A DNA stretch of 61,640 bases, the filler included, from Sanchytrium tribonematis (Eukaryota), in NCBI GenBank assembly GCA_018985235.1. It is 4 parts of 4 records of this genome, joined end to end, with 100 filler letters (N's around TTAATTAATTAA, not from the genome) between each part and the next. Parts side by side here need not be neighbours in the genome. Positions count along the whole stretch, not along the records: positions 1 to 15,391 come from JADGIG010000151.1; positions 15,492 to 30,880 come from JADGIG010000152.1; positions 30,981 to 46,302 come from JADGIG010000153.1; positions 46,403 to 61,640 come from JADGIG010000154.1. One strand, 5' to 3'. Both the position numbers and the translations under genes were made by a program. Every line of letters starts with the position of its first letter. Position 1 is the stretch's first letter. The notes under the pieces were generated by a model, which was given only the letters and a program-made list of their open reading frames with translations, was not told the DNA's origin and did not search any database. Below, in pieces: positions 5,453 through 59,211 of the stretch.

Positions 5453-6746
5453 TTATTTATGAAAACATCTATCAATTTGTTCATCTGTTTCACCATCCAT
5501 TATTTTCTTGACAGTCAATAAAGTACAAATACCCATACTCAATAATGCAAATATAATTAATCCGATATTAGATATCCTTCTCATATTACTATTATGACAT
5601 GCTTTTAAATGTAATAGAGGGGGGAAAATGAAACTAATTGGAATGCAAACAAATACGCCAGTTAAAGAGACAAATAAATCTAAAATACCACTAAAACACC
5701 ATGCAGCTAAACAGACGACTATAACGACACATATTCTAAAGACGGATCTTTGTAATTCGGTGGATTTGGATGTTTTGTGGCCTAAATGGGGATCAGGGAA
5801 TAATGGGGCTTCCATGATTTCCATAGCGGGAAATAATTGGAGTGGGACACTGACTGAGATGGCAAATACATAACCAATCTGTAATACTTGCAGGAAGATG
5901 CCATTTGGCATATTGAGGAGAATGATGGTTTCAGTTGATTTGCCAAATACTAGAGATGAAAAGGAGCCTACGACGCAGTACATGATGGTGAGAAATATGA
6001 TGGATATTTTCAGACATTTGCCGAATTTGGAAGGATCTGCCATTGCTTGACGAACCGGAACGACTAAATAAATAAAAATGACCTAAACCGATGCCTTCAA
6101 ATGCACTGATTGCAATACCGTAAAATAAGACCATACTAGAGATATTAGAAGACATTTTCCATTCTAAATCATGGTCGGATACGCCTTTAATGTCATTCCA
6201 AAGCACATAAATGATACTTAGAAAAATAGCCACATTTCCAACTAATGCGACATTTGCAAAGTTCTTCATCTGTCTAATGAGAACTAGAGGAATGTAAATG
6301 ACTAATTGAGCCATAATCAGCAGAAAGAAGTCATGTACTTGTGTTTTACATTGAGATAATGTAGAAATTAAATCTTTTAAATTACTGGCTACAAAGATAA
6401 TGTAGATCATTGCAAATGAGAATTGAGCAATGGCAATACTAAGGAGGACTATGCCTTTGAATTTGGGACCATATAAAGTGGCTGCAATGTCTTGATAACT
6501 GCCAGGAACCACTGATGCTGCTTCTGCTAATAATAAAAGACCCCATAAACTCACAGATGCTGAGAAGACTAGAAAGAATAGAGATGGGATTAATCCGGCT
6601 ACATAGAATGCCTTTGGAAGGAATATAATGCCAGTGCCTAGAAAGGATTTGATTAATAAAAACAGAGTTTTGTTAAAACTGGCTCCACCTTCTTCTGCTA
6701 TAAAACTACCATTAGTTAATCGTTTTTGCTTGGTGTCAATGATCAT
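5453..6746 (-). CDS. AAAP-family (AVT3/AVT4-like) amino acid transporter; 19-nt intron 6064-6082
   Basis: LIKSFLGTGIIFLPKAF; splicing gtcatttttatttatttag gives AFEGIGLVVPVRQAMADP and joins the two ORFs; PLQLFPA, FIFPPLLHLK. Confidence 0.9.
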
Positions 6747-7177
6747 TTTGTATTTTCAATTTGCCAATTGGATTTGGGAGATTTGAGATTATAAAATATT
6801 TGTCAGTCTCACATGATGTCGCAGATGTAACGTGACCCGCTTTGTACCCCATATTGGCCAATCACGTCATTGTATTTGCCATTGTGATCTGTTGGGGGTA
6901 TTATCCCTGTTATCTAGTGACGATTAATTTATTTTAGAGAATGTTGTGTGAAAATGGTCAAAATGAGTCACTTTAACTAACAAATTAGGAAAATGCACGC
7001 ACCAGTAATTCCATTAATCAATAGCAACAAATTCGATCCATTTCAATGAGGGTCATTCATTTGCCCATCTGACAAATATCGCCATCAGATGATTCACGTG
7101 TTCAAAAACAGCACATCCAAATTGCGCACCTATCTCATCATCCTTTTCTTTTTAAACTAGCTAGTCACACATTCTAA

Positions 7178-7768
7178 ATGATCATCTTCACACTGTTACT
7201 CGCAAATCTAAACACACAAAGTCGTTGCCCATCTTCAATCACAATTCATTCTTCTGAAATGTCTCCTAAGCAATATCAACTTCTCCAATTCATCCAATCT
7301 GTTCTTGATGATGTCCCAGAAGACCAAATCAATCATGATTTACAATCTTTTGATGCTTATCGATTGTTAAATGCAATTAAAGATCAAGATTCTGCAATTG
7401 AGAAATTAGTAAGTCAATCGCATTTAGGTGATTTAACCAGTATCAAACATGTCACAGAGGCATTAAACCAGTTCACTGCCACTAATACTGTCCGCCAAGT
7501 GAGTCGATTCAGTAAACGACAAAATAGAATCACCGTTCTTGGAGTTACTCGATTTACAATTGTCATTGCTGGTATTGTTTTTTATGCAGTTTGGTCGGGA
7601 CATCATGGAGAAAAGGGTAAAAAATTATCTTATGGTGGAATGGGTGCCTATTTAACAATTCTAGCTGAATTACTTGCTAGTTATTTAGATCAAAAATGTT
7701 TTAGAAAAAGACCACTTGTAGATAATTCAAGCACAGAACAGGCACAAAACACCGAGTCTGAAGCATAA
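7178..7768 (+). CDS. Hypothetical protein with short hydrophobic leader and two C-terminal hydrophobic segments
   Basis: 196-aa ORF; MIIFTLLLA leader; FTIVIAGIVFYAVW and GAYLTILAELLASY segments. Confidence 0.6.
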   Translation: MIIFTLLLANLNTQSRCPSSITIHSSEMSPKQYQLLQFIQSVLDDVPEDQINHDLQSFDAYRLLNAIKDQDSAIEKLVSQSHLGDLTSIKHVTEALNQFTATNTVRQVSRFSKRQNRITVLGVTRFTIVIAGIVFYAVWSGHHGEKGKKLSYGGMGAYLTILAELLASYLDQKCFRKRPLVDNSSTEQAQNTESEA

Positions 7769-8076
7769 GTAAAACAAATTTTTTGATTTGAAAATCAAAA
7801 GGCCATTTGGGAAGCCTTTTATGGCACACAGATCTCTGCACGGAAATATCTATGACATTAATGATTTTAATGACACAGATTCTTTGAATACAATCACCGA
7901 TTATGATTGATATAAAATTGTTCTGTGTCATTGATAAAGAGGCCTCTGCACGGAAATTCTGCCCAATAAAAGGCTCTAAAATATTTGCCAAAAAGTATAA
8001 ATACCCACGCTGCCCCATTTATTATCAATGAAGTTCTACAATTCACCAGCATATCTACCAAACGCAATTAGTTATC

Positions 8077-8927: not shown

Positions 8928-9934
8928 ATGTTACTGACTACTCTTTATGGGAAACCAGTGATTTCTGATGCACCATTCGCACTCAGCCAATGCTCTAATA
9001 CACCCTATAAAGTCCAACAAACCAATTCATTGACATTCATAACCACGAGTTATAGCTATAAAGCACTCCCAGATGGATTATACGACATCTACATGGATTT
9101 CCAAAATACTGAGAATGTCAATATCACTTTAAAAAACTGTGATTTGAGTAATCAGTGTGATTTAATGAAAGCATACACGTATACACAGTTGAAGAGTGGT
9201 GTGACTGTTAATTTCACTGCATTTGAATATGATTCCAACTTTATTGAGTACGATTTCCAATCATCCAGTAGTTTAAAAGTAGAAACGACGCGTGTAGAAG
9301 TGTGTCAACATGGCAAGACAGATTTAGATAGTTGTTACGGGATTAGAGTGTGTTCTGTATTAGATTTGACTGTTTTTGACTATAGCAGTGTCAAATGCCG
9401 GGTGAGTCAAAAATTATTAAATGTAGATTATAAGACCAGGTATAAATTCAATTTAACAGAAAATAATGGACCCATTCAAGGTGATCCACAATTAACACAT
9501 GTCTTCATGTCATTTTCAAACGATTCTTTCTCTGAAAATGAGATGCAAGTCTCTGCTGATGCATTTGGTGGTATTGAATTATTAGATGATAAAAGTGGAT
9601 ATTATTATCCAACATTAACTGATTTAGCCATGGGTGTGCGCATGACATCCACGAATGCATCCTCCATCACATTTGATTTTGGATTATATTCTGAAAAGAG
9701 AAATTTGACTCAAACCAGTCAAGTCGTGTGTAGCAATAATAAATGCATTGGATGGATGAGTCAAGCTTGTCCCGTCAATTATGTGGCACCTGGACCTGTA
9801 AATTATTATTTATTTAGACTGGTACTGGCAATAATGGATTAGTTTCAACCACTTCTAGCCCACAAGTCACACAGACATCTGGAGTAGCTCAATTGACTGT
9901 ATTATTGACTGTGTTGACTGTGTTATTGTTTTAA
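8928..9934 (+). CDS. Putative GPI-anchored Cys-containing surface protein; 20-nt intron 9798-9817
   Basis: Splicing gtaaattattatttatttag extends the ORF into S/T-rich TGTGNNGLVSTTSSPQVTQTSG plus hydrophobic tail VAQLTVLLTVLTVLLF-stop. Confidence 0.75.
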
Positions 9935-9948
9935 TTAGTAAATATGTG

Positions 9949-11975
9949 TTAAATAGGGATAGGTGGAGCAGGTGCCCGATAGAGTGCTTCTTCATAAGAT
10001 GCGGTAGCCAATGCATTACTAGCATCGTCCAAAATGATTTGATCTGGTTGATTGTGAGTACTAGATGCACCAGGTTGCTTTCTTTTCTTACTTCCTATTA
10101 GATCAGTAATACTTCCAGATAACATCGAAATATCTTTCAGCGATTTTTTACCAATATTACCAGGATCGTCCAGACCGATTTGATCTGGTTGAGATGCGTC
10201 AGGTTGCTTTCTTTTCTTACTTCCTATTAGATCAGCAATACTTCCAGATAACATCGATATTTTTTTTAGTGATTTTTCACCAATGATATCCATAAAAGGA
10301 AATGAAATCCTAGGATCTGAATTTTTAATTCTAGATATTCCCAAATTTCGAATTTCAATCAAATGCTGATTTAACAATGTTTTATCTCCTTTTTGATTTG
10401 CAAATTCCACCAATTCATTTATAAAAGCGTGCCATATCTTTAAGGGTGCTGTAATAACATCATTCTTATAAATCTCAAATAAATTGACCAATGGTGTTTC
10501 CCAAATCAGAGTTGGATCTATAATATTCCTCCAATTCATGATATCATTGTAAAATGGCTTAGATAAATAGTACTTCTTTTTATTCTTGATTCCAATCGAG
10601 CTATACAAGCTGCATAAAATGCTCTATTTTCGACAGTATCTATTCGAGGCAAGCTTTCAAGTGCTGGTATTTCAATAGTGCCTAATAATTTCATAAGCAA
10701 GTAAACTTGATCATCTGGCTCTTTAAACGCAGATTTCTCAATAATTTTGTTGCCTTTATTTTGGATTGGAGTCAATAAATTGAATAAAAAACTATATTTT
10801 GTAAATCCCTCTGTCACACAAATACCCAAATCATCAGAGTATTGCAACAGATTGTCTATTAGAGTGTTGAAAATAAACAAGGGTGTTTGATCATCTGTTG
10901 CTTTTCTTATAAAACGTTGAAATAATATTTTCATAGGAGTATTTCGAAATGAAGCAATTTCGTCTTGATTTGGAACTGGTAAATCAGGTAATTCAGATAA
11001 TAAACGATAAAGGTCTTCATTCACTTCAGACTGGTCATCTACGGAACCATTTTGAATCGAATCTTTGCTCGTTGGAGAAGGCTTTTTACGCTTCTCATTT
11101 TTTCTATCTCTAATTTTTTCTTTGATGGGTTCATTACAAAGATCTCTCAATTTTAACTTGACTTCAGGTACATTTTTTAATTTGGTCACTGTATATTTAA
11201 TGGCACGATTACCTTTAACCCGCAAAACACGTAAATTAGAAAATAAAATGTCTTTCCGACTCGATTCATTATTAAATAAAGATGAATCTGCATTTTCAAC
11301 TAATTCGACCAGTTCATTTATAAATGCGTACCATGACTTCAGTGTAATTTTTGCGTACTTTGCAAATAATTGAATAATGGAGAGTTTCCAAAATTGAGTT
11401 TCATCAATCGTATTCAGCAATTGATTTTCCCAATTCATTTTATCATTTAATATGACTTTAAAAGATTTCTTGCTCAATCCAGATATCCTGTTAAACCAAG
11501 TACGATAAAACTTCTTGCTTTCTGGTGTATCTTTTGTTGCAAAATCTTGAAGAGCAGGTAATTTAAATGTACTTTTGTAATTTATATCTTGAAGTAAACT
11601 GATTAGTATATAAAACTGATCATCTGGATTTTCATGGTCTTGAATCATCGTACATCCAATTCTTTTCATTAGTTCCAAATTATGTTTTAAATGATTTTTG
11701 GGATTTGTTTTGCCTTTAACTAGTCCCAATCCAACTTTCTGTGTAACTTGTATGAGTTGATTCATTAATACATTCCAGACATCATTAGGTGATTGATTCG
11801 GTTGTCTATTTCTTGCATGTTGTTGAAATAATTGTAGAATTGGAGTGGATAGTAATTCATGCTCTAACTGTGGATCTATTGGTAGACCCATGGGTAGATC
11901 TGTCGATGTGGTTGCCATGATTGGGAATGTCAAAGCAGTCAAAAGAAAGAGAATCATGTGTTTCCTCCTATCCAT
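9949..11975 (-). CDS. Secreted helical-repeat protein with NLS-like motifs; split by a frameshift near 10560-10600
   Basis: Leader MILFLLTALTFPIMA; the internal repeat (ND.MNW...W.AFINELVE) continues across the two overlapping ORFs; EKRKK and two SKKRK motifs. Confidence 0.6.
10025..10285 (-). repeat. Two diverged coding tandem repeats of about 130-140 nt
   Basis: IGEKSLKKISMLSGSIADLIGSKKRKQPDA...QPDQI vs IGKKSLKDISMLSGSITDLIGSKKRKQPGA...QPDQI; near-identical DNA. Confidence 0.9.
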
Positions 11976-12008
11976 CCCCCTTTAGCAGCGAAATATCTGG
12001 CAACTGAT

Positions 12009-13130
12009 TTATTCAAATTTAGTAGATTTAATCACTCTATCATTGATACCACTCAATTCACCCTGATAAAATAAATGTCCTTTATAAGTAGCATGACTGG
12101 ATTGATTCTTTTTAGTGGCTTTATCAAATTTAGCCTTTTTACGCACACGTGGATTACTATTTAATGATCGTTTACCAGTTGTAAATTGCTTATTTTTCTG
12201 AATAGAATAATTAATATTTCTAGTTTTAGGGATTTCACGATTAAAATGAGCACCAGGTTTCAAATTGGCCAATTGTTGTTCAAATGTCAATTCATCTTCA
12301 GAGGCATCACTAAATGCATCTGCTTGTTCATTTAGTTGATTTAATTGGGATTCATTGACTTGGCTGTTTAAAATGGGTTGTGGTTTCTCAAATACCATTT
12401 CATGTTCTAATGGGGCAGTTTTAGTGGATTTTGGGATGATATTGTTGATTAATCTTTTATAATTACCATGAGAGGGTCTGATTTCGGATGTATTGCTGTC
12501 TGAATCCGTTTCTACAAGTTCATCAAAATTGATGGGTTCATCTGGATCACTCATTTCTAGAGATTCTTGGTCACTTTGAGCATCACTGTACTTACTAGTG
12601 GCATCATTGAATGGATCATCATCCATTTCATCAGTCAATTCACCCTCAGAGTCATTTTGTGGATCATTTTGAGCATCATTTTCAATTTTTGCCATTTCTT
12701 TTGTGTTTTCCAACTCATCCACTTCAGAGTCATCTTTAGCATACCTCTTGTTGTATTTACTCATATATGACTTGATTTTAACCATTAAATCGACTATAGG
12801 ATGATATTCAATCCCAACACCCTCAGAAATCAATTTAATCAAAACACACAAACATTGACAATAATATACTTCAATTGGATTTAAATCTTCCTTTTTCATA
12901 TATATCATCAATTCATCTTGCCATTCTTCACTAGATTGCTTCATTGGAGTGGCTTCTTCATCTGAAAAATCAATAAAATCAGATTCATTCATTTTTGCAA
13001 TTTGTTGTTTGTGAATGTCAAGTGCTTGTTGTTGTTCTAATTGATCTGGTGTTAATTCATGATCTACTTCATTGGATAATTCCATAATGGGTTCTACATC
13101 GGATATTTCTGAAAATTCAAATTCTGACAT
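12009..13130 (-). CDS. SAS10: Sas10/Utp3 small-subunit processome protein
   Basis: Acidic body; C-terminal RNINYSIQKNK...NPRVRKKAKFDKA...YQGELSGIN...KSTKF Sas10 C-domain. Confidence 0.85.
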   Translation of the reverse strand: MSEFEFSEISDVEPIMELSNEVDHELTPDQLEQQQALDIHKQQIAKMNESDFIDFSDEEATPMKQSSEEWQDELMIYMKKEDLNPIEVYYCQCLCVLIKLISEGVGIEYHPIVDLMVKIKSYMSKYNKRYAKDDSEVDELENTKEMAKIENDAQNDPQNDSEGELTDEMDDDPFNDATSKYSDAQSDQESLEMSDPDEPINFDELVETDSDSNTSEIRPSHGNYKRLINNIIPKSTKTAPLEHEMVFEKPQPILNSQVNESQLNQLNEQADAFSDASEDELTFEQQLANLKPGAHFNREIPKTRNINYSIQKNKQFTTGKRSLNSNPRVRKKAKFDKATKKNQSSHATYKGHLFYQGELSGINDRVIKSTKFE

Positions 13131-13986: not shown

Positions 13987-15391
13987 TTATTGTAAATGAA
14001 TCCAAATGATCCCAAATAGTGCCATCTTTATTACATTCCCACCACTCTTTGAATCATTAAATACATCTGCCTCACTCGGTACCACATTATTCAACAAACT
14101 ACTCTGCATAATTCTCTCAAATTCACTCTCAAATCCCTTTCTTTTATCCATTGTCACATTCATCTTATTAAACCAGTCATCCAAACTACCAGGATCCGTC
14201 ACAGTCGTATTCTCGCCTCCAACTGCCTTGTCATAAGTATAACATAATTTAGAATAATCTAGAATATCTGTAGCAGATACCCCTACATATTTCATTTCTC
14301 GAGTCATGTCCATGTACGCATCACTATATTTCGCATTGGGATGCTTAATATGGAATTCAATATGCATTTTTTCAACCCACGCATGATGTAACCAAAATAC
14401 AATATCTCTTGGACTCGATGGCCCACTCATATCTCCACCAATTCGAGCATGGGGCGTGGCATGTGGAAACAATTCAAAATCGAGCATGGGGCGTGGCATG
14501 TGGAAACAATTCAAAATTGGTACTAAATTGATGAAATGTATTGTAATTATCAATCATTTGGTACACCGTCTTCACATGCACAAATGGCGTACGTTCAAAT
14601 TGGCGTCGAATACATTGCCCATGAATGCGCACATTTGCAAATGGACCATCAATACACTGATTCATTCGATTCCCATCCCCACCAATCATTTCCCATACTT
14701 TAGATTGCCATGGATTCCCTGCTTCTCTATCATGAGACCAATACGGCACACAAATCGAGGGATCTATGGTTTGCAATGCTTGTTCAAATACACTCACAAA
14801 TGCACGATGCCATGGTAAAAAGTAATCAGTAAAATGGGCATAGGACCATACGCCAATATGCCATGTGACGAGACTATCCATCACGCCATTTTCTGCCAAT
14901 TTAATAAATGCATTTTTGAATTTGTTCCATTCTTCATCTGATAAATGATGGATTTCCTTACGCACACATTGATTTGTGCATTTAATATTGGCAATAGATG
15001 GTATATTCGAATTGGAATTGGAATTGGAATTAGTGGTACTAGAAGATTGAGACAATTGGGAAACTGCATTGTTATTTGCAATAAAATTGGACCATGGATT
15101 GGATTGACTATTGTTGCCATTGTCATTGGATTTGCCGGATGAATCACTCTTTTCATTGGATTGTTTGTTGGATTTATCAGTAGATTTATCATTGGATGAC
15201 TTGTCCGTAGATTTATCATTGGATTTGTCAGTAGATGATTTATCAGTAGATGACTTGTCGGATTTGTCTGCTGTAGTCTTTTCATTCTTATCTACTGTTT
15301 TGCCATCTCCATTGACTGCAATAGATGTGCCAGTATTAGGTGCATTCGTCATATCAGGGCCATTTAAAATAAAGACAGGTGATTTGCCTTT
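13987..15391 (-). CDS. Tyrosinase (type-3 copper protein), 5' truncated by the gap, interrupted by a 37-bp tandem duplication
   Basis: VRKEIHHLS, CuA WH...AH...FLPWHR, PYW, DGPF, CuB PHATPH...GGDM...SPRDIVFWLHHAWVEK; S/D/K-rich N-terminal linker; hydrophobic C-tail. Confidence 0.88.
14443..14516. repeat. Exact 2 x 37-bp tandem duplication
   Basis: tcgagcatggggcgtggcatgtggaaacaattcaaaa at 14443-14479 and 14480-14516. Confidence 0.95.
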
Positions 15392-15957: not shown

Positions 15958-16941
15958 TTAATATCTTGGTCTTTTATAATGATCTCTCTCTGAATTCCCT
16001 CTTCTTCTGTCATCATCAAAGCTTCTTCTATCTTGATACCCGCCATTGTTTCCTTCCCTACGTTCATAGCCAACTGACCTTGGATGACGCGTATCTCTAT
16101 CATTCCGGCTGTCTCGATATCCACTATTATAATTTCTGCCTTCTCCTCTATCCATTCTTTCAGGTCTATCTATACTACCGCGATAATTTCGACCATAATC
16201 TCTGTCACTTTCTGGTCGGCTCATATTTTCACGATGGTTCCTGTCTCGATGCTGTGGACGGTCGCTATTTCTTCTATCTTGATATCCTCCCCTATCATTT
16301 CTACCTCTATCATCTCTATTTTGGGGACGACCACCGCTATTTCCAAAATTCATTTCGTTAATATCTCTTCCTCTTATATCCAGATTTTTACCTTTTTCTC
16401 GGTACATCAACACTTGAGCTTCTTTCAAATCACGTAATAAATTTAAGCTCGGGCGCTTTAGATGCATGAAATTGCACATTTTCCCTCTTGCACAAGCATT
16501 GTCATCGTGTTGTTTACAAAGAGCATCCCTGAAGGAAACCACTGGCGAAAGTTCTGCGAATATGGGTCTTGCGGCATAAAATCTATTATTTATGTCCAAT
16601 TGCGCTTTCTTGGCATCTTCGTCAAACCTATATTTGCAAAATACGTCTCCCACCAAATGGTCACAAATATTGTCTGTCACTATTAATTCATCGATGTATC
16701 CGTAATTCGATAGTTCAATAAACATATCTGTGTAAAACATGTCAAAATGTTGTTGAAGTTGATCCTCATTTAATTTAAATTGGTCATTTTTTGGATTTGC
16801 ATAAATATTGTAAAGAACTACAGTGGGTGAGAAATTTGGGCGGGTATGTTTTCTGGCACATCTATCACCATGTCTACATGCTCCTATTTTGTAATAAAAA
16901 GAACAGTTATTTTTGTCTGATTCTGTTCCATAAGAATTCAT
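15958..16941 (-). CDS. U2AF1: Splicing factor U2AF small subunit (U2AF35)
   Basis: GTESDKNNCSFYYKIGACRHGDRCARKH, UHM domain, second CCCH finger CARGKMCNFMH, R/D-rich tail. Confidence 0.95.
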   Translation of the reverse strand: MNSYGTESDKNNCSFYYKIGACRHGDRCARKHTRPNFSPTVVLYNIYANPKNDQFKLNEDQLQQHFDMFYTDMFIELSNYGYIDELIVTDNICDHLVGDVFCKYRFDEDAKKAQLDINNRFYAARPIFAELSPVVSFRDALCKQHDDNACARGKMCNFMHLKRPSLNLLRDLKEAQVLMYREKGKNLDIRGRDINEMNFGNSGGRPQNRDDRGRNDRGGYQDRRNSDRPQHRDRNHRENMSRPESDRDYGRNYRGSIDRPERMDRGEGRNYNSGYRDSRNDRDTRHPRSVGYERREGNNGGYQDRRSFDDDRRRGNSERDHYKRPRY

Positions 16942-20299: not shown

Positions 20300-21654
20300 T
20301 TAACGCTGTCCAAATTCCCAAAAAATGATTCGATTATCCTCAGCCACACTAACTATTTTATCATCTGACATTGCAACATTGAATACTCGAGAAGTGTGTC
20401 CCATACCTCTTTCCAAAGATTCGATCATTTCAGTTTCTGTATATTCAGCGACTTGGTATGGCTGTTTTGGTATCATCACATTACTATTTGGTAAACTAGT
20501 TGTAAAATCTGTAGCCACAACTTTGCAATCGTAGCTTCCACTAACAACGACATTTCGAGAAGCATTGACTGAGACAGTTCTTACAAGCTCGTCATGGGCT
20601 CTGATCACATTGAAGCAGGTAGCCATTCTTAAATCATGAATTCTAATAGTTTTGTCACTAGAACCAGATACCAGTATATTTAAATCAGCATCTAAACAGG
20701 CTATACCCCTTTCATGGCCCGGGATATTCATGACTGATTGGCCATTTCTTTTGTCCCAACACTTGATGATCCTGTCCCCACCCGCAGAAATAACCATATC
20801 TTGAAGTGCCACGACACTATTTACAGCTGCTTGATGCCCATCCATGTTCACAAGTGGTGTTTCGAGATTGTTAATATCCCAGAGCCTAACGTGTCTATCC
20901 TAAGTGAGAAAAAATTTACTTTTGAGCAAGTAGCAAAAGTCTCAAAGTTGCGATATACACTTACATTTAACACCGCTTCTCGATGTGCATTGAATCTAGT
21001 TACTAGTTTCATATCGCATGCATCCCAAATTCCAACTGTGGAATCACTGCTCCCTGTTACTATTCGATTTTTTGTTTGAACTGGATGTAGATGTTCGGGT
21101 ATATGTTCGTATTTTGGGTAATGAGTAGGAACTAATTCTGTACATAAAACGCTTGCTGTATGGCCTTGTAATTGGCATAGCAATTTTCCATTTAAGTCAA
21201 ATATTTTTAAAAGCTGATCCCTGCCACCACAAACAATGATATCGCCCACATCCACGCAATATATACCTCTAGAGTGGACTTTTGTAGCATGAGTGTTATA
21301 ATTAAGGCTTTTCCAATTTTTGTCGAGTTTATGCTCCTGAACATAATAAAATTCAAATTTTGAATGATCCATTTGTCTTTTTAATCTATAATGACGAATA
21401 TATAGTCTATACCATATCAAGTCATCTTTGACAAGATTGTAATAATGATTATTGACTGATTTAAGGTTTAATAGATCTTCATAATTCATAAATTCTAAAA
21501 TATGTAAAATAATTTCTTTTGGAAGTATTTTTAATGGGTCCAATTTAAGTGATTTTTCCAATAGTTCTAGAGTTAAAATTTTTTCTCTCATAGTTAATTG
21601 TGAAAATGTAGTCAAAATTGTCTCAATCGAAGAGTTATTTGATCTTCTTTGCAT
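20300..21654 (-). CDS. F-box/WD40 protein (beta-TrCP/Met30-like); 20-nt intron 20900-20919
   Basis: LPKEIILHILEFM F-box; multiple GH...WD repeats; splicing gtaaattttttctcacttag yields TCSKDRHVRLWD. Confidence 0.9.
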
Positions 21655-23907: not shown

Positions 23908-24991
23908 ATGGCAACTTACTATGCTTCCGTAGATATCAACGGTATTGATGTGGAGGAAGATTTGGCAAAAGCAATAGTAGATCCAATTTTCAAGTCCAGC
24001 GACTTGCATAGAACAGCACAATATTTACGATCTTTAGGAGTCCAAGCAATTTTTACAAAAGATGGTGATCATTTGGACATACAATGCAAAGAAATGAAGA
24101 AATTGAAATTGGGTGTTGGTACGGAGGTATCCCAACAAGATGTAACTCTTGGACTCAGCTTAGTTGCAAATAATTTAAGAAAAAGACTAGATAATCTTCA
24201 ATTCAAAGCCAATTTTGGTCAATGGACAAGGGGCCTATTTGAGTTGCAATACAAGATACCATTGCAGAGCAATCTTCTATCCAGAATGGTACACTCATTA
24301 AGATTTGGTAATATCACCATGCCTACTAAAATGTATGAAAGATCCGTAACTTCCAAATACATTGTTGAACATGAAAGCCTCCCACTTACCTACTCCATTG
24401 GGCCCGAGATCAGTTTGAGGGATCATTTAGAGTATTCTCAAATGGGTGGTGTTGGTCATGAAGTAGCATTTGACTCTAGGGATAAAGCCTTGCCATCAAA
24501 GGGAATTAATTTTAAAATTGGTCAATTCATCGGAATGTGGGAGCCTCACACCTTTGTCAAAAATTATTGCTATTTTTCTATCACAAAATCGTTATTTAAT
24601 CTAGTACCTCTTTTTCATTTAGAGTTTGCAAGCCACTATTCGAGCAAATGATGTAAGTGGCAAACATCATGTAATAGACAAAATATACAGTGGAGGTCCT
24701 TGTTCTATAAGAGGATACCCTGTTGGAAAAATTGTAAAAGATCAATTTATTGAAAGCGGACTCAATTTGTTTGGACCCTGGCTGGCTTTTATTAGACCAT
24801 TTGGATTTCTTAATTATGGCTCCTCTCTGAATCAAATCAAATCTTCTGAATATGGGTACGGATCCTATGGCGGTGGAATCGCAATTGGGTTTGGTTTGAT
24901 AAGAGGAGAAATATACTATTGTAAGAAGCTAAATGTGAAAGATGAGTTAGAAGAGCGTATCCACATTGGGCTTGGAATGGAATTTCTCTAG
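23908..24991 (+). CDS. SAM50: Sam50/Omp85 mitochondrial outer-membrane beta-barrel; 19-nt intron 24604-24622
   Basis: FDSRD..PSKG, DKIYSGGPCSIRGY, C-terminal beta-signal IHIGLGMEFL; intron gtacctctttttcatttag joins the frames. Confidence 0.88.
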
Positions 24992-31272: not shown

Positions 31273-31539
31273 TTATGTCAGGTCTGAGGTTGCAATTAGC
31301 GGCTGAATCAATGTAATGCATTCACCTTTAAGCAACAATTGCCCAAGTTCTTTTCGATCGTTCGTCTTAGCATTTATCTCGAGACATTCATCTACTACCA
31401 CGTTCAAAAATTCATCAAATCCTTTTATGTAACCCTGGAGCATTACGTTTGGGTTGTCGTATAGCCAAATCTGGACGTGTTCTTTCTGTTGCAAATAATT
31501 AAATAGTACATGAATTGGTTGAACGAGTTGTCGTGACAT
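31273..31539 (-). CDS. SNRPE: snRNP core protein SmE
   Basis: VQPIHVLFNYLQ..VQIWLY..GYIKGFDEFLNVVVD..LGQLLLKGECITLIQ. Confidence 0.93.
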   Translation of the reverse strand: MSRQLVQPIHVLFNYLQQKEHVQIWLYDNPNVMLQGYIKGFDEFLNVVVDECLEINAKTNDRKELGQLLLKGECITLIQPLIATSDLT

Positions 31540-31744: not shown

Positions 31745-32928
<1,184 letters not shown>

Positions 32929-32964: not shown

Positions 32965-33204
32965 TTATTTTGATTTTTGTTCCAGTGTATTAACGTTGTG
33001 AGATACCGAGGTTACACTTGTTCCTCTAACGATCAATGAGCCTACTTGTCTCCCATCAAATATACCATTCTCAATATTCAAATTTAGTAATTGATCGAAG
33101 CCACGTAACGTTCCCTCTACCACATGATCCCCTAAACAATCAACAAAGACAGGTTCATTCAACAAATTATCCAACTGAAATACAGAAGATTTCTGTTTTG
33201 ACAT
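32965..33204 (-). CDS. Sm-like protein (Lsm7/SmG-like)
   Basis: VEGTLRGFDQLLNL (Sm1) and VGSLIVRGTSV (Sm2). Confidence 0.85.
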   Translation of the reverse strand: MSKQKSSVFQLDNLLNEPVFVDCLGDHVVEGTLRGFDQLLNLNIENGIFDGRQVGSLIVRGTSVTSVSHNVNTLEQKSK

Positions 33205-39334: not shown

Positions 39335-39348
39335 GTTTGAAAAATAAT

Positions 39349-42300
39349 TTATTTTGTACCTTTTATAGTTGCTGCTATAGTTTTCTTGTTTAAATCGATT
39401 GCTGGCAGTAAACTACCCACAACTGCAAATAAGCAAGATAAAGCAATGATTATTATGTAAAATATTACTGGAAAGCTGAAATACCAAGGCAATTCCAAAA
39501 ATACGTTGCTCTAAAGGCAGAAAAATACACCTGTCAAGCATCCGATAGTAGTTCCAAGTGCAGCGCTGCTTAAGACAATGCATAATGCTTCATAAATATA
39601 TAGTCGAAGTAAAGTGGCTTTTGTAAAGCCAAGCGATCGCAAAACACCATATTCCCAACTATTATCTTTGACATTTGACTCGAATGATATTATTAAAACA
39701 AAGAAACATAAAATCATTGCACCGATACTCACGGCACTAAGGGCATACTCACCTTTGGCTTTTGAATCATCTGTATCTTTTTTAGCCTTTCTGGCATCTT
39801 GTATTTGAGTGTTCTGATTTATGATCGTATTGAGTTCATTCATGAAAGATTCTACTTGCAGGTCAGAAGCTCCAGATTCTATTTTTATAAAGCAGTCTTT
39901 AATTGGAATACTTTGCGATGAATACAAGCTGATGTTAGTCTTGGCAAAAGAATCTACAGTTTCAAGCAATTTTTTAAAGTCCCCCATCTGCACAAACATA
40001 GCAGTACTCGAACTAAAAGAGCTGATTTCTGTGTATCCTGGCATCTTTGAAACTAATCCTACAGGCTTCATAATAAATCTTGTAGAAACTGTGTTGATTT
40101 CATTCACTGGTAAAATATACAAAATTAACTCACCCTTGCTATTCATGGGAAAGTACATATTATCTAAAGACTGTTGGCTTCCAATAAAAGGTATTGTATA
40201 TCTTTGAATTTGATTAGTTCTACCGTACACTTTGGATACTGAGATTAGCGAGTCATCTGGTTTATAATTTCTGTCTGTGAAATCGTATAATTCATTGAAT
40301 ATATTGATTTCTTTTAGTATATTTATGGGTTGAGTGACCATGATGTAGTCTTTGAATACACTAGAAGAAAACTGCTCTTCAATCCCAAATATACTACTAC
40401 TTAACGGCAGAAATCCACTTAAACTAGATAGGGTTCCATCTGCAACTGGATAGTAATCTAAAAGATCAAATGTAGCAAATGAATATCCTTGAACGACATG
40501 TGAAAATCCTGGAGTCGATGTGGTTTTGTTGGATAGAAATTCTTCTAAAATATCTCGTTGTAACGGCTTTTCATAAGAGAGTGAATACAACCTGATGTCG
40601 CTACCATATACGTTTTCAGTCAATTTGTTTAACGAATCAGCTTGAATATTAAACATGACCGATACAAATATGATGTAACTCAAGCACAATGTAAATACCA
40701 ATGATGTGTATCTATTTTTGCTTCTGTGAGCGCTAAGATTCTTCAGTAATATATCGGTAATTAAGCGATCATATAATTTGGTGATAAGGTATGCAAAAAT
40801 GATTTCTAATGGGGCAAGAAGAAACTGTCCAATAATTGTGAGTCCAATTATAAGCCCCATTAAAATCAAGGTGAAGACCCGAAAGAACAAGGTGAAATCT
40901 TGAAAAACGAATGCTAAAGGTATCATCTATATTAGTTGGTAATACATAATAAACTAAAAAACCAAAAATGACAAACAGAATTGACATTGTAGTCTCAACC
41001 GGACTGAGTCCATACGATTTTAATTTTTGTATCGTTATTTTAGTTTCTTCCACACTCGAGTGATACAAATCCAAGGCGTCTCTAAGCGTTGTACCTAAAG
41101 CTCGTCTTATAGGCAAAATAATTCCAAGCAGTGGTAAAAATATGCCTATTACTACACCTAATACTACACTCCAGCCTTGAAGGGCGCTAGCGATATCATT
41201 CCCCACACTTTGAGATACATAAAATGCAATAGGTAAATTGAATATATATGAGAACATTAAGCTAGTTAAAATACCAGGGACTGCAAACAGAAGTGACTTT
41301 TGTAGCAATAATGCAATAAGAGAGCTTTGTTGCAGACCAAGCGACCTAAGCATTCCATATTCGTATGTTTTTTCATGAACATCTTTGTTCATTAATGAGT
41401 ATATAACCGCAATTGCGAGTATAATCAATATAAATATAATCGAGAAAAATATTTCATTAAATATAAAAGACAAAAATTGAGCGTTGTCAAGGGCTAAACT
41501 GATAACTGGTGTTAATATTGCAGAACTGTAAATACCAATATTTTCTGCTATAGCATTTGCCAAATTGATTATACTCCCTTGCCTTTCTTTAGTGCTGCTA
41601 AGATAAATGTCATATCTGTCCTTCATTATTATATTAATAAAAGCAACAAATTCCTCCATGTTGACTTGAGATGTTATGTTAGAAGCTAAGTCATTAACAT
41701 TATTTGAGCCCCCAATAGCCAAAGAAGCAGCCGACAAAATACTTTTCACAATATAACCCACAGCCGACTTGTCTAATAACACAACATTTCCTAAAGCACT
41801 TGCGTATTTACCATCGGTTTTGGCAATTGCATCAATAACTTGAAATGATATACTTGTAGCACCAAAGTTTGTCACAAATGTATTTGGGACGACAAGAAAT
41901 GTCTGGTTGCCAGTATTTCTTAAAGTTAGTCCTAACTGTAATGCATTTAGTACCTGAACAGTTGTATCGGGGAGCAAACCGTTTCCTAGAGGAATTGTAA
42001 AATCTGCGTTTTTTGAAATATTAGCTTGTTGAAATCCGGTCAGGTTTAAAGTAATATCCAAAGTGTTGCCACTGTTTGGTAAGAGATTTAAATTTCTAAT
42101 TAGGGAATCAGAGCAATGCATTTCATTGCTCCCAAGTGGTCGCTTATTCCAAAGAGGAGCAATTTCGTTATCATCTTCTAATGTGCTATCAATAATCACA
42201 GCGATTGCTTTGGAGGTTTTTTTGTTTAAACTATTAACTACGTTGATCGGTAAAATCCAGCGTGGTGCAATTTTGTCAATGCCAGAGGTATTTAATAGCT

Positions 42301-43749: not shown

Positions 43750-45247
43750 ATGAATCATGAAGAGTCACCGAGGCAAATATCCAAGAAAGACACAAAAGAT
43801 CAGCCGTTCACGGCGATTGACTTGTCGAATATGGGCTTGAAAGCTATTTCAAATAATCTATTTAAGTGGTACTCCTTTCTGTCAGTTATAAATTTAAGTA
43901 GCAATAATCTGAGATCAATTTCCTCCAGAATATCAGAGTTAAATAATTTAGTTTATTTGGATTTATCTGCCAACCAGTTGCAATCCGTTCCATGGGAAAT
44001 GGGATTATTGTCACAGCTTCAAACATTGTATTTACATGATAACTTTTTAACAACCCTGCCACATGAATTTGGAATGCTTTATCAACTTAACAAATTAACT
44101 CTCGATAATAATCCATTAGCAGATGTTATATTTCAAATTGAAAAGCAATCTTGTACTCATCTAATTCATTATCTGCGAGATAACGCGCCAAAATCCTCTC
44201 CACCACCCCCAAGATCTTGGGAACCAAAAAAGAAAGACGCAAACCATTTTACTATACTCAGTTACAATATATTGGCACAGAAATATGCCCGTCCAAAGTT
44301 GTATGGGTATACTCCCAACTGGGCGCTGGACTGGAATCACAGGAGCGCAAACATTATAGCAGAAGTAGAGAGCTATGATCCAGACATTATTTGTTTTCAG
44401 GAGATTGAAGAAGGTGACTATGAATCATTTTTTGGGCCCAGATTATTAACGCTTCCTGGAAGAATGTATAGGGGAATGTTTTTTCAAAAATCAAGAGCTA
44501 AAACTATGGGAGAGCTGGACAAAAAGTCAGTTGACGGTTGCGCGATATTTGCTAAAATAGACAAGTTTGAGTTTATTACAGAACATCTTTTAGAATTTAA
44601 TGAGCTAGCTTTAAAACAACACTATCTTGAAAAAACAGACAGTTTATTTACACGATTGATGCAAAGGGACAATATAGCTGTAGTTGCGCAACTAAGGCAC
44701 ATATCTTCAAAAGTGCCCGTTTGGGTTGTTAACTGTCATATTCATTGGGATCCAAATTATAACGATGTTAAAGTTTTGCAAACCGCGATAATGTTAGAGG
44801 AAGTGTCGAAATTGGTAGGGTCGCATCCACTTGTTATTTGTGGAGATTTTAATTCTACTCCAGAATCTGCTGTAATCAAGCTTATGACCGAGAAATTCAT
44901 ACCTGGTGATCACCCCGAATTGCTAGGAGTCGATTATGGATCTTCCTTACGAACACATGGATTAAAAAATAGATTACAGTCTTTGTCAAACGCGTATGAG
45001 CATCACGAACTTCCTTTCACAAATTATACCCCAGGATTTAAAGGAGTTATTGACTATATATTTTATTCTGATAGGCTTTTAGAAGTCACAGCAACACTGG
45101 GCGAGATTTCGCAAGATTATTATAATAATTATGTTGGTTTTCCAAACCCTCATTTGCCGTCGGAGTATAATTTACTAATTTAGTCATATATGCTTGATTT
45201 CAGAATTTAATATCAGTCCTACAACAATAAAACTTTACCAATCTTGA
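43750..45247 (+). CDS. CCR4: CCR4 deadenylase (LRR + EEP); 19-nt intron 45165-45183
   Basis: LRRs, SYNILA, FQE, CGDFNS, IDYIFY; removing gtataatttactaatttag restores the catalytic PSDH. Confidence 0.95.
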
Positions 45248-45304: not shown

Positions 45305-46302
45305 ATGGATTCATCTATGAATTTTAATTCTGTTGTACACTATCTGGCTTCAGAGTTTAAAAAATTCGAAAGAGAAAGGCTTGAATGGCAAATTGAAAAA
45401 AACACTTTGCTTAGTCGTATCGCAATTCTTGAAGGAGAAAAACGATCTATTGCACATTTAAATGCCGATATTTTAGAAAAACTGACATTGTCCGATTCAA
45501 AAATCGAAAGACCAGCAATAGATGTTGACAAGAAGAAAGACGACACTCGAAAATTATTACTTTCATTTATGCAGGAGGCTAAGCAGCTTTCATTATCTCC
45601 ATTAGATCCAGTGCCTGATAGATCAGAACCTGATGAATCATCTATACCAAAATCATATTACGATGTGGAGCAGCTTGAAGAGTTGTCTCAAATTAAAGTT
45701 GAGGACCTTCGTAAGGAAAAAAGGCTGTGGAGGTCGAGCATAAATTTCAGATCGCATTTTGACGCTGTCAGATCGGTTAAATTTATCGACCACTTCCACT
45801 TTATGTCTATTGGTGATGATGGTTGCGTCAAGATATGGAATTTGAAATGCGAAGATCCATATCGGTCATTTAGAACAGATACATCATTCTTATGTGGGGC
45901 AATTTTGAATAATATGGCAGTTTGCGGTGATTTGAAAGGAAGGTTGCACTTATTTAGAGTAGATATTTCCAAACCTATTGAAGACTACCCAAATTACGAT
46001 AAAACCTTCAGGCTTCACTACAGTGATGATCATTCGGACGCTATCTGGGAAATTGCTGCTTTTGAGAAAAAAAACAAGTGCGCTTCCATCAGTGCCGACG
46101 GAACTCTTAAAATATGGACCCTGGATCAAAATTTAATCACGCTTTCGCATTCCCTGACTTGTACTTTATGCTAACGTAGTTGATAATCAACACCCAACTT
46201 CTATCTGCTGTTCATACCAAAATGATGATCTTTTTTATGCTGGATTCGATACTGGTCAGATTTTGTCTCTGGACATTAATACTGGTAAAGTCGTTGATAC
46301 AA
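45305..46302 (+). CDS. Striatin/Far8 (STRIPAK) WD40 protein, 3' truncated; 19-nt intron 46161-46179
   Basis: VVHYLASEFKKFERERLEWQIEK..RIAILEGE striatin N-terminus; RSHFDAVR, HSDAIW; intron gtactttatgctaacgtag reopens the frame (DNQHPTSI...). Confidence 0.9.
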
Positions 46303-49047: not shown

Positions 49048-49140
49048 TTTGGTTTCAATGAAGGGATTAAAAAATAAATTAATTTATTGAAGTACTTAAA
49101 TCAGTTAAAATCCAATTAAAAAACTCATTTATCCGTCCAA

Positions 49141-51795: not shown

Positions 51796-53276
51796 CAGAA
51801 TCCACTTTATGGACTGTCAACACCCCTGTCTCCCACACAACCGATAATAGTGGATGTTTGTCAGAAATAAATTCCATAAAAGTTGGGCGGGCGTAAATTT
51901 TTTTAAAATGACTGTTATTTTCTAAATTATCAGACAACTTGGGACCAGTAATAAACCCTCTAAATTAGAAGTATTTACATAATAGAGCAAGTGATTTCTT
52001 TTTCTGAACTATAACCAATTTCCAAAACGGCAATTTTGTTTCTTCCTTCTTTAGCATTATCAAGTTTCAAAGTACTTTCAAGCTGAGGACTTAGCGGTGT
52101 TCCAACATGCCCTGTTTTTCTTGGTGTGCCTTGTCCAGGGTATTTTTTGCTCAAAGGTGTACTGAATACCTCATTTTCTATTAAAGGAGTTGATAACATT
52201 CTTTTTCTAACTGAATTTAACTGAACTATTTTCACCGATTCTTCTTCTTCCTCGTCGTCTTCTGGCTCAAATGAAATAGCCATATACTTTCCGTTAAGGC
52301 TAATTTTTAGCTCTCTCACCGCTCCGCCTACATGAACATTTAATGGCTGGAGTCTGACTGCTGACATTTTTAATGGGAATAATCTCAAACAATTTTCGAG
52401 TTTGTCTTGGATATTTATAATATTTAATAAATCTGAATGTTTACAGCTAAAATAAATGAACCGGGAATTATCTGACCAACTAATAGACGTTATTGATGTT
52501 TGAAACTCAGTAAACGATTTTGTTTGCATACAAATAATGTTAATCACTATGAGGGAACCTGAAAAGTCACCTACAGCTAGAAATCTATTATTTGGAGAAA
52601 ATGACAAGGTACACGGAGCGGAGCCGCGATAGGATAGTATCTCAAAAGACTGCAAGATCATATCATATAAAAACACATTGCTGCATCCAACAAAACCAAA
52701 TGCTATAAGCTTCCCATCTGTAGAGAATGACATCGTTGATAAAATTCCATTAAATGGTAGGGGTATCACATAGTACCAAGGAATCATTTTGTTCAGCGCT
52801 CGAAAATGATTATATACATCCGCATTGTCATATTCGATGCCAAACTTGAAATAAGCCATTTCTGTATCACCTACAACTAAAAAAGAATATCCATCACACG
52901 GTCTCCACACAGCTCTCTTAATCGTGCCAAGATTTGTGCAGGGAATAGGATCTCTAAACTTTTGAGACCCAATATCGTATAAATGTATTTTAGTTGTGGT
53001 TGCGACCAAAATGATTGGTAATTTTGGATGTGTGCTAATATTGACAATGTTGATATGATGCTCTGTAGGCCAATAATACCACCTCATCAATCCCCTTGTT
53101 AAATATGGAAATTTCTTGTCTAATTTTGTCAAGAAAAGATTATTATTTGTAGTATTTTTAGTGTACGGAAAGACTTTGACATTTGCTTTTTCAAACATGA
53201 TATTATTGTCTTGGATCTCTCTGTAACTAGAATGAAGGGTGGACCAGTTTGTTTCTTTGTTGCCAAACCTAAGCAT
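51782..53276 (-). CDS. WD40 protein, aladin (AAAS)-like nucleoporin; 19-nt intron 51960-51978
   Basis: HP, AVWRP, FSPNNRFL, VGGAV...G.YMAISF; removing gtaaatacttctaatttag adds IGFITGP...PTFMEF...LLSVVWETG. Confidence 0.7.
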
Positions 53277-54561: not shown

Positions 54562-54578
54562 AACACAGGGGCTAACTT

Positions 54579-55571: not shown

Positions 55572-55724
55572 TCTCAAAAGTTTCACCCCAACCCCGCTAA
55601 AATTAAAATATATGATTCTTTGTTCCTACTCAATTCGAAAAAAGAGCATCTGGATTGGTTTAATTCAAAAATTAAAATTATCTTGCCAAAATTTATTTGG
55701 CAATTTTATAATAATTTTTCAAAC

Positions 55725-58700
55725 ATGCTTGTAAAATTTCAATCGTCGTCAAATAGAGTTAAAAATTGCTCTTTTCATCCGACTCAGCCATTAATTTTAA
55801 TTGCACTGCATAACGGGAGTGTTCAATTGTATAATTATTTACTTGGAACCCTGATCAATACGTTTTACGCTCATAATGGTCCAGTTCGAGGGGTTGCCTT
55901 TCATCCAAAGCAGCCACTGTTTGTTAGTGGTGGGGACGATTATTTAATCAAACTTTACAACTTTAAAACAAATGCACAGCCAACTATTTTAATGGGTCAT
56001 TTGGATTACATTCGAAGTGTTTATTTCCATGATGAATTATCTTGGGTGATTTCGGCAAGTGATGATCAAACTCTTAGAATCTGGAATTACATGAATAGAA
56101 CCTGTATATCAATACTGACTGGACACAATCATTATTGTATGCATGCTGTTTTCACGCCTAGCAGTTATGGGAATTATATTATCAGTTGTTCACTTGATCA
56201 AACCATACGAATTTGGGATTATGGAATTTTGAAAAATAAACACACAACAAACAACAGTAGCGCGACATTGGGGGATCAATTCCAGATGGACTGTACTGTC
56301 AAATTTGTACTTGAAGGTCACGATCGAGGTGTTAATTGGGTATCTGTTCACCCTACTCAACCATTAATTGCCAGTGGTGCTGATGATCGCCAGGTTAAAG
56401 TTTGGCGATTAGGGGAAAGTCGAGCATGGGAATTAAGTAGTTTTCGTGGACATTACAATAATGTTTCTAGTGTATGTTTCCACCCGTTTTTGGATTTAAT
56501 TATAAGTAATAGCGAAGACAAATCCATCAGAATATGGGACACGAACAAGCGAGTGATGGTGAATACATTTAAACGAGATAATGATAGATTTTGGTGTATC
56601 AACCCTCATTCAAATCAAGCCCTTTTCGCAGCCGGACACGACAGTGGAGTTCTGGTTTTTAAATTAGAACGAGAACGGCCTTCTATCTGTAGCTATGATA
56701 CTGAATTATTTTGCATTAAAAATGAAAATATTGTAAAGTTTGACATACAGACTAATCAAGAGACTGTTCTGGGTGCATACAAAGGAAAACCGAGAGTGAT
56801 GAGCTATAACCCCATTGAAAAATCGTTCTTAATCGTTAATGCCGAGGAAAGTTTGGTGGAGTGGGTCCAGCCAAGTTCGCAACAGGTACAACAGTTTAGT
56901 GCATCATTGGGTGTGTATATTGCTAGAAATAGGATTGCTTTACTGAATGTGGCTAAAAACAAGATTATTATCAAAGACACCAAAGGAGATATTAATAGAC
57001 AAAAGGAATTGGACGTTCAGATACCAGTTACAAATATGATCTCGGCGGGGACAGCACATGTTTTATTGCTTTCGAGCCAGGTTGTTCAGCTTTGGGATGT
57101 TCAACAAGGAATTCTTATAAGCGAGGTCAAACAGAGTCAATGCAAATATGCAATATGGTCCCATGACCTCAGACATGTAGCATTATTGTCCAAACATGCC
57201 ATCACTATATGCACACGAAATTTGGTGGTAAAAACTATAGTTCATGAGACTCTGCGAATCAAAAGTGCTGTGTGGACACATGGCGTATTAATTTATAGCA
57301 CCCTGAATCATTTGAAATATTGCTTGCTGAATGGCGATGTCGGAATTATTCAAACGATTGCTGAACCAATCTATATATCCAAAGCAGAGCCTTCGAAATT
57401 GTACGGTTGGACCAGACAAAAGAATGTAAAAATTTTTGAAATCGACCCAACAGAATATTTATTTAAGCGTGCGTTAATTAATAGAGATTATGCACAAGTG
57501 AGTCATATTATAGAAAACTCGAACCTGATGGGACAAGCAATTATTGCGTACTTGCAAAAAAAAGGATATCCAGAAGTTGCTCTTCAGTTTGTTCGAGATC
57601 CCGCAACAAAATTCGAACTTGCTGTTGAATGTGGCGATTTGAATACGGCATTTGAGACTGCAAAATCTATTAATTCTTCAGAAACTTGGTTTAAACTCGG
57701 TGAAGAATCAATTTTGAATGGAAACGCGAAGCTGGCGGAGCAGTGTTATCAGCAAAGTAAGCAACTCGGGAAGCTTTCATTCCTTTATCTTGTGAACGGA
57801 AACACTGAGAGACTGCAAAAAATGCTTCAAGTACATGTCAATCGTCAGGACCCAGTAATGGCGTTTCAAACAGCCTTAATGTTAGGTAACGTCGAAAAAC
57901 GATTCGAAATTTTGAAAGATTCAAAGCAATATGCTTTGGCTTATATGCTGGCGAAAACTCATGGGCTTCAAGATAAAGCTAATGAAGTACAACAGGCAGC
58001 CAATATCACAGGTCCTGTTCTCTGGAAACCAGCAGGATTGACGCTGACAACTCCTGCTCCATTAACAGCAGAAGATCTTTTTCAATGGCCCTTAAGATCT
58101 ATGGACAAAGGATTTTTTGATGGGGAATCTAGTGTCGTTAAGAACGAAAATTCTGAAGAGGAAGTAGAAAATGATTGGGTGGAAGAGGAAGAAGAATTGA
58201 AGCTTCCAACAAAGACTTTGGCAGAGGCTATGAAAAATATAGACATAAAGTCAGATGGGTGGGGAGTGGATGATTTTGATATTCCCGCTGCGATTGTCGA
58301 AGACTCAAAAGTTAAAGCAAGCAAGCTAGACGATAGGCTAGTGAGTATTGCACGAACATCTTCTGAACCTCTACATCACATTTCTGCTGGGCTCTTTGAA
58401 AGTGCCGTGAAAATTTTATATAATCAATTTGGCATTGTCAATTTTGAAATTTTGCGACCACACTTTCTTAGAATATACGAATCAAATCATGCATCGCTGG
58501 AGTTTCTGCCAAATGCACCCTTTCTAGATATTTGCCTCAGTATCTTTCCCTATTCTTTACAAGCGCTTATTGCAGAAATTACTGAGGCTTATAAAATTAC
58601 TTCAGCTGGATCTTTTTCCGAGGCTGTGTCTGTATTTAGAGAAATTCTTCAAAAATGTGTGTTCTTGAAAGCAGATCCATCTAATGTTAACGAAGTCTTG

Positions 58701-59211
58701 ATGTTAATCAAAGTCTGTCGAACTTATATATTGGGTTTGAGTATTGAAATTGAACGCCGTACAGTAGAGCAGTCTAACCCCAAAAGGAATGTAGAACTTT
58801 CTGTATACTTTGCATCATGTGATTTACAAGCTGCTCATTTGCAACTTGCTCTAAGATCATCCATGTCCATTTGCTTTAAAGCGGGCTGCTTTTTAACTTG
58901 CTTGTACACAGCTAAGAGATTACTGGACATGAATCCACCCGATCAAATTGCCCAAAAGGTCATTCTAATTAATGTAGATTCGGACAGTAGCTATTCAGTG
59001 TGAACAAAATCCAACTGATGCAATAAAGCTAGCATGCAAACCGAATACTGCGTTAAAATTGTGCAGTAGCTCTTATTCCCCAATAGTCAATTTATTAAAT
59101 TGCAGCTTTTGTATTGCAGAATATGAAGCTTCTTTAAAAGGCAAATTGTGTCAGGTCTGCAAACTAGGCGTCATAGGTGATCAAAAACCTGGGTTTTCTT
59201 TAAGATCATAA
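55725..59211 (+). CDS. COPA: Coatomer subunit alpha; 19-nt intron 58959-58977
   Basis: MLVKFQSSSNRVK, WD40 repeats, LEGHDRGVNW, YLQKKGYPEVAL; removing gtcattctaattaatgtag adds IRTVAIQCEQNPTDA...KGKLCQVC C-terminus. Confidence 0.97.

Follow-up and report, generated by a model that had tools for sequence, protein, structure and literature searches.

We analysed a stretch of 61,640 nucleotides (nt) from Sanchytrium tribonematis, referred to below as the window, which joins four contigs of 15,391, 15,389, 15,322 and 15,238 bases with N linkers between them. Its GC content is 34.6% (Ns included), and its eukaryotic genes are densely packed. Of some 56 genes counted by hand, ten (about 0.2 introns per gene) are interrupted by a segment of 19 nt (seven cases) or 20 nt (three cases), which begins with GT and ends with TAG in all ten and is very probably a spliceosomal intron. 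Six of the introns lie on the plus strand and four on the minus strand:

6064..6082, minus strand: Aa_trans amino-acid transporter; 19 nt, phase 1
9798..9817, plus strand: gene without known family; 20 nt, phase 0; placed by frame and full motif only
20900..20919, minus strand: F-box/WD40 gene; 20 nt, phase 0; WD40 register kept
24604..24622, plus strand: Omp85/Sam50-like gene; 19 nt, phase 0
32725..32744, plus strand: actin; 20 nt, phase 2; spliced product 375 amino acids (aa)
40927..40945, minus strand: FtsX-type ABC permease; 19 nt, phase 0
45165..45183, plus strand: CCR4; 19 nt, phase 2; splicing restores the PSDH motif
46161..46179, plus strand: striatin-like WD40 gene, cut by the contig end; 19 nt, phase 1
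51960..51978, minus strand: WD40 (Aladin-like) gene; 19 nt, phase 2; splicing adds 59 aa
58959..58977, plus strand: coatomer alpha (COPA); 19 nt, phase 0

Ten probable introns with one shared motif

The original prediction, made from the sequence, had called these ten segments introns of near-fixed size, and on re-checking its coordinates, lengths, TAG ends and restored frames matched in 10 of 10 cases. The open frame upstream of each intron spans 224-1140 codons, and the downstream frame is longer after splicing than without it in all ten. When the introns were aligned at their 3′ ends, we found YTNAYNTAG in every one, with a pyrimidine (Y) at -9 and -5, T at -8 and -3, and A at -6. The whole-intron pattern GT[AC]...YTNAYNTAG likewise held in 10/10, with the A at -6 in the 19-nt and 20-nt classes alike. 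In 200,000 shuffles of the intron interiors, a column consisting of A throughout appeared 16 times. The donor is GTA in eight introns and GTC in two, a G at +5 occurs in none, and the middle of the introns is T-rich. A CTAAY branch-like motif close to the acceptor had been described for five introns; the motif was indeed seen, but its restriction to five was wrong, as YTNAY is present in all ten. CTAAY stands exactly at -9..-5 in four introns, and the COPA intron carries CTAAT at -13 together with TTAAT at -9..-5. Because only two bases separate the predicted branch A from the TAG, no pyrimidine tract fits, in line with the little room that had been foreseen for one.

A scan of the whole window with the strict motif returned seven matches at 19 nt and three at 20 nt, which are the known ten, while 100 shuffles gave a mean of 1.41 and a maximum of 7 matches at 19-20 nt; there is some circularity in this count, since the same introns supplied the motif. 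At other lengths from 12 to 40 nt, the scan of the window gave background level only. In complete genes, all introns (9/9) lie in the 3′ half of the coding sequence, at relative positions of 0.52-0.96, and no 5′-proximal intron was found in the genes of the window, actin included.

Homologues and the splice junctions

For actin, CCR4 and COPA, every nearby GT/GC-AG pair was scored against homologues. The splice pair listed above ranked first among 44 alternatives in actin, was the best of 23 in CCR4 and came top of 27 in COPA. The family motifs recognised in the original prediction were recovered, with a spliced actin of full 375-aa length, a regained PSDH motif in CCR4 and a COPA junction that is gap-free against homologues. 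Profile matches also ran on across the junctions: the actin profile of Pfam matched at 2-347 on exon 1 and then at 346-410 on exon 2, COPI_C at 5-322 and then 322-397 across the COPA junction, and PF01490 of the amino-acid transporter at 2-210 on exon 1 and 211-405 on exon 2. An actin relative, P0064 (96%), likewise stops three codons beyond the intron site. The spliced permease is gap-free at its junction against 15 aligned homologues that span the site, and its continuous orthologue P0299 (62% identity over 1132 aa) has no intron. The junctions of actin, CCR4, COPA, the FtsX-type permease and the amino-acid transporter are fixed by homologues or by profile continuity.

As for the other five candidates, two junctions have partial family support, and three (9798, 46161 and 51960) are placed mostly by frame and motif. 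In the F-box/WD40 gene, exon 1 ends at position 133 of PF25173 and exon 2 begins at 92 or 50, which is 134 minus one or two 42-residue WD40 repeats. Exon 2 of the Omp85/Sam50-like gene matches PF01103 at 190-325. Its exon 1 had no match in Pfam and PDB searches, so that the exact SAM50 junction rests on frame and motif. A striatin domain (striatin-3, E-value (E) 1.5e-8) lies upstream of the 46161 intron, followed by a weakly WD40-like exon 2, and exon 2 of the Aladin-like gene had no match in Pfam or PDB; PDB searches left the SAM50, striatin exon-2 and Aladin-like exon-2 junctions unconfirmed. In the 9798 gene, for which a Pfam profile search gave no family match, splicing appends a Ser/Thr-rich, hydrophobic C-terminal tail, and this putative intron appears to be the weakest case among the ten.

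Allelic differences follow the spliced frame

Second alleles were taken from sequencing run X1. X1 may have given rise to the window sequence itself; we therefore relied on its variants solely for the frames in which they are silent. Upstream of the permease intron, all allelic differences (6/6) are silent in the upstream frame. Downstream of it, 6/9 are silent in the spliced frame versus 0/9 in the read-through frame, and where both frames are open the numbers are 4/5 versus 0/5. The silent frame switches between 40915 and 40955, and one variant falls inside the intron, at +4. The differences in the amino-acid transporter are silent in the spliced frames in 4/4 cases and in the other frame in 0/4. 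We also observed that X1 holds two alleles at similar depth in 39250-41250, 2900-4300, 7500-7550 and 12590-12720, with patchy differences every 10-30 bases, which suggests a diploid or a mixed sample.

A probable CCR4 intron in sanchytrid relatives

CCR4 has three close relatives at 72-76%, namely an Amoeboradix gromovi record in EukProt (76%) and two ENA records, and the next fungi follow at about 44% or less. In a CCR4 tree (single gene, quick method, 25 chosen rows), the window sequence and the three relatives formed one clade with an SH-aLRT of 100 and a long stem. The permease is 68% identical to an A. gromovi fragment, and the best COPA match is the blastoclad Sorochytrium. Judged by these comparisons, the host is a sanchytrid that groups with A. 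gromovi.

The CCR4 records of all three sanchytrid relatives stop just past PSE, like the unspliced frame of the window. We found that, among lengths of 10-27 nt, 20 nt alone gives AG and then Asp-His in the A. gromovi tail, and at 20 nt this tail also satisfies all 13 constraints of the complete motif. For the two ENA tails, agreement with the motif (9 constraints each) comes at 19 nt; they end Leu/Phe-Ile-stop, where a 19-nt intron requires YTN-ATH-TAG. From these tails we infer that the three relatives share this CCR4 intron, with 20 nt in A. gromovi and 19 nt in each of the ENA pair. The ENA records P0299 and P0124 each go with two contigs, the longest of 9842 bases in either case, which suggests that this relative has kept the permease-CCR4 neighbourhood of the window. 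JGI metagenome contigs gave no match to a degenerate actin-plus-intron pattern, and a CCR4 alignment against them returned two unrelated loci with leucine-rich repeats only (about 30% identity) and no relatives.

Outside the sanchytrids, read-through at the CCR4 intron position was seen in 12 of 116 fungal records (proteins, not DNA), and one COPA record of 34, P0295, has a 17-aa in-frame insert (51 nt) at the junction. Both sites thus seem to bear introns in other fungi, and the CCR4 and COPA introns are therefore likely to be old fungal introns that have been shortened. The permease intron, in turn, is missing from P0299, which suggests that intron gain or loss is still ongoing.

Splicing factors and a proposed mechanism

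Three genes for components of the splicing machinery were found in the window:

15958..16941, minus strand: U2AF small subunit (U2AF1); S. pombe U2AF23, E 2e-67
31273..31539, minus strand: SmE; PDB SmE, E 1.2e-24
32965..33204, minus strand: Sm/Lsm protein, best match SmG; PDB SmG, E 8.1e-6; Pfam LSM

U2AF1, SmE and an Lsm gene had been predicted; the first two were borne out, whereas the supposed Lsm gene best matches SmG, its sole PDB match at E<1e-5. U2AF1 keeps Glu12, Lys15, Phe20, Arg28, His29 and Arg35, which contact RNA in the S. pombe structure. At the Ser34 position, which is mutated in human cancers, it carries Ala, and its N-terminus is shortened; yet T stands at -3 in all ten introns. 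The Ser34 hydroxyl has been described to bond the U at -3 (PMC7505975). The annotation table of A. gromovi contains a row for Prp8 (PMC8371127, supplement). An Rfam search over the 61-kb window gave no match of any kind at gathering thresholds, hence no small nuclear RNA (snRNA), and two sub-threshold microRNA matches.

The junctions in homologues, the allelic frames, the intron of the relatives and the U2AF1, SmE and SmG genes all support the original reading of spliceosomal introns with a near-fixed minimal length. U12-type introns have an extended, ATCC-containing donor and an extended branch consensus, and the U12-type donor consensus was not seen in columns +3..+8 of the ten introns. We hold with considerable confidence that the ten inserts are U2-type introns in nuclear genes of a sanchytrid, removed by the major spliceosome, with a predicted branch A at -6.

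In the mechanism that we propose, U2 snRNA would pair with YUNAY and bulge the A at -6, which would then attack the GU 14-15 nt upstream, to give a lariat loop of 14-15 nt and a tail of 5 nt. U2AF1 would bind the UAG immediately beside the branch site, and the acceptor would be chosen by its fixed distance, with no scanning. Since the 3′ module is constant and only the loop differs in length, 19 nt is likely to be near the floor of this spliceosome. Ancestral fungal introns would have shrunk with genome compaction, in the ancestor of S. tribonematis, A. gromovi and the two metagenomic relatives.

Comparison with other very short introns

Introns of fixed, very small size are already known in kind, and the precedents from nucleomorphs and ciliates that had been invoked hold, with 15-16 nt in Stentor and 18-21 nt in the Bigelowiella natans nucleomorph; the size here had also been placed below that usual in fungi, and microsporidian introns mostly have at least 22 nt. 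In Stentor coeruleus, the branch A is reported as the 10th of 15 or the 11th of 16 nt, leaving a 5-nt tail (PMC9505925). The ten introns resemble those of Stentor in their near-fixed length, GT(A) donor, AU-rich composition, A at -6 for either length, and 5-nt tail. Stentor, however, is a ciliate, its introns are 15-16 nt against 19-20 nt and its loop is 10-11 nt against 14-15 nt here, and its branch consensus is not strong, while YTNAY is present in 10/10 introns of the window. Mikrocytos mackini has 16-17-nt introns, 224 in all, with none in metabolic or transporter genes (PMC10245619). Like the sanchytrid, it is a reduced parasite with a two-length class and a conserved intron sequence, but it is a rhizarian with shorter introns, and here 2/10 sit in transporter genes. 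The B. natans nucleomorph (about three introns per gene; PMC6009652) has overlapping lengths and GT-AG ends. It is, however, the relict nucleus of an endosymbiont and its introns show no discernible branch A, whereas here a fixed branch-like motif is found in a fungal nucleus; a nucleomorph origin does not agree with the fungal host genes and the branch-like motif.

Within Holomycota, introns of 22-76 nt are reported for E. cuniculi (PMC3629993), whose branch motif is CTAAYTT, and those of V. culicis are mostly 22-24 nt, with at least one predicted 19-nt intron that lacks RNA coverage (PMC4435813, supplement). Like the sanchytrid, these microsporidia are parasites within Holomycota whose very short introns have GT-AG ends and a branch motif, but the introns are longer as a class, with strict donors and only tens per genome. 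Microsporidia are a separate lineage, so the shortening would be convergent. Rozella introns are about 30 nt. Yarrowia lipolytica, also a fungus, is reported to place its branch motif 2 nt before AG, with the A at -6, and to lack a 3′ pyrimidine tract (PMC2483917), the same geometry as here, but in long introns with strong ACTAAC and GTGAGT signals, in contrast to 19-20 nt and a degenerate donor. Among animals, myxobolid myxozoans and Dicyema have median lengths of 22-27 nt, 22 nt being the lowest animal median (PMC13644364). They too are parasitic opisthokonts with a donor reduced to GTa; their lengths are broader, and their conserved A recedes from AG with length, whereas here it stays at -6. 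As a class, the ten introns are shorter than any fungal set in the literature that we searched. This search of openly accessible papers, largely at title level, gave no account of sanchytrid introns, and in the main text of PMC8371127 "intron" occurs solely in a reference title.

Weighing the interpretation

A broader reading can be built on these observations, and we lean towards it by a slight measure: a miniaturised spliceosome throughout Sanchytriomycota, which would have only 19-20-nt introns, a fused YUNAYNUAG branch/acceptor signal and a two-to-three-letter donor. If this holds, no uniform class of introns in Fungi, and probably none in opisthokonts, would be shorter, and the geometry would have converged with that of Stentor; each genome would contain about 1,000-3,000 unannotated introns, mainly in 3′ gene halves; and U2AF1, with Ala at Ser34, would possibly be adapted to them.

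Several points weigh against our main interpretation, that the inserts are U2-type introns with a branch A fixed at -6. Ten introns in 61 kb are too few for genome-wide uniformity, and the junctions at 9798, 46161 and 51960, as well as the exact SAM50 junction, are without confirmation by homologues. The introns of the relatives were deduced from protein tails, not DNA, and these tails may be compatible with other lengths too, of at least 28 nt in A. gromovi and of 24 or at least 28 nt in the ENA pair. Of the nine permease variants downstream of the intron, three are non-silent whichever frame is read, and X1, as the possible source of the window, provides no evidence independent of the assembly. 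Poor splicing is frequent among the short introns of microsporidia (median 25.3% in V. culicis) and could apply here.

The last point leads to the alternative that survives best, although we consider it improbable: the inserts would be real spliceosomal introns, but with a main branch point other than the A at -6, or with inefficient splicing and frequent retention. The short introns of E. cuniculi and V. culicis are mostly less than 50% spliced, and the 18-21-nt introns of chlorarachniophyte nucleomorphs splice well without a discernible branch A (PMC6009652). Against this, every intron of either length has the A at -6, as do those deduced for the relatives, and retention would cost actin its last 61 aa and CCR4 the His of its catalytic motif.

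Mobile elements offer another explanation. Introner-like introns form near-identical sequence families with target-site repeats, and the inserts might be recent insertions of this kind, or small duplications, that happen to be spliced. The absence of the permease intron from the close orthologue P0299 would suit such an origin, as would the TTAG repeat that flanks intron 6064. However, a flanking repeat was seen in 1/10 introns, the ten sequences are unlike one another apart from their splice signals, and distant fungi seem to have introns at the CCR4 and COPA sites, which makes this origin very unlikely. That the inserts are not introns at all but assembly or amplification errors, pseudogene frameshifts or translational bypass is scarcely credible, since, for all that published sanchytrid assemblies derive from whole-genome amplification (PMC8371127) and the window holds other lesions (the 37-bp tyrosinase duplication and an in-frame TAG), ten inserts on both strands have two lengths and a single motif, the CCR4 site is interrupted alike in three independent relatives and purifying selection persists in the spliced frame.

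Further candidates for introns were also considered. A motif-free list of frame-extending GT-AG pairs contained one more strong candidate, 39511-39528 (minus strand, 18 nt). It was rejected as an eleventh intron, since its interior lacks an A and its TAG stands one-to-one opposite Gln of 123 of 149 homologues. Taken with the motif scan, the list gave no convincing intron of another length in the window. The TAG in question, at 39511-39513 (minus strand), is in frame in the permease; A. gromovi also has Gln there, and 53 conserved codons follow. It may be a nonsense allele, an amplification error or a site of local readthrough. A general TAG=Gln code was rejected, as 46 hand-picked ends of open reading frames (ORFs) comprised 37 TAA, 5 TGA and 4 TAG and long frames were free of in-frame TAG. 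At 22598-22617 (minus strand), at the end of a mitochondrial L17-like gene, lies a 20-nt GT...TAG candidate with A at -6 and one mismatch, a G at -5. No fitting intron was found for the split ORFs at 2555-2601 (NIF phosphatase), 8784/8835, 10536-10623 and about 14480 (tyrosinase).

Consequences for annotation

Two sanchytrid genomes, with GC contents of 36.27% and 34.64%, have been described, and their ORFs were called by TransDecoder on genomic contigs (PMC8371127). It had been foreseen that default gene predictors would miss introns of this size, and the unspliced products of the window do stand in EukProt as exact records, in 11 of 11 cases looked up. EukProt proteins are accordingly truncated or split for 10 of the roughly 56 window genes, actin included, and such errors in sanchytrid proteomes bear on phylogenomic and gene-loss analyses. 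Scaling from 10 introns in 61,340 bases gives about 1,800 in an 11.2-Mb genome (Poisson range about 900-3,400), if the window is typical.

The U2-type introns of the window would add a fungal case to the few lineages at the lower size limit of splicing, and would permit a comparison of loop size between lineages of separate origin (14-15 nt here, 10-11 nt in Stentor). Among the fungal relatives of the host are intron-rich species with model spliceosomes, which is not the case for nucleomorphs or ciliates, and the shrinkage should therefore be traceable intron by intron and protein by protein.

Other features of the window

At about 14445-14515 (minus strand), the reading frame of the tyrosinase gene is disrupted by a tandem duplication (about 37 bp), and an X1 contig ends at 14488; the duplication may be an assembly artefact or a real lesion. 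A repeat-domain protein with a signal-like start is encoded at 9949-11981 (minus strand), and its frame is shifted near 10580 in a way that is incompatible with an intron. We further identified a tyrosine-recombinase ORF at 47755-49083 (minus strand), with weak Phage_integrase matches, which we take to be Crypton-like and which adjoins a DDE_1 transposase fragment at 49812-50153 (plus strand). In the region 130-5424, about seven NIF/CTD-phosphatase-like (PF03031) genes are clustered in tandem; signal-like hydrophobic N-termini occur in several of them, one is a two-domain gene and two are fragmentary. The cluster is possibly an expanded family of secreted proteins of this algal parasite.

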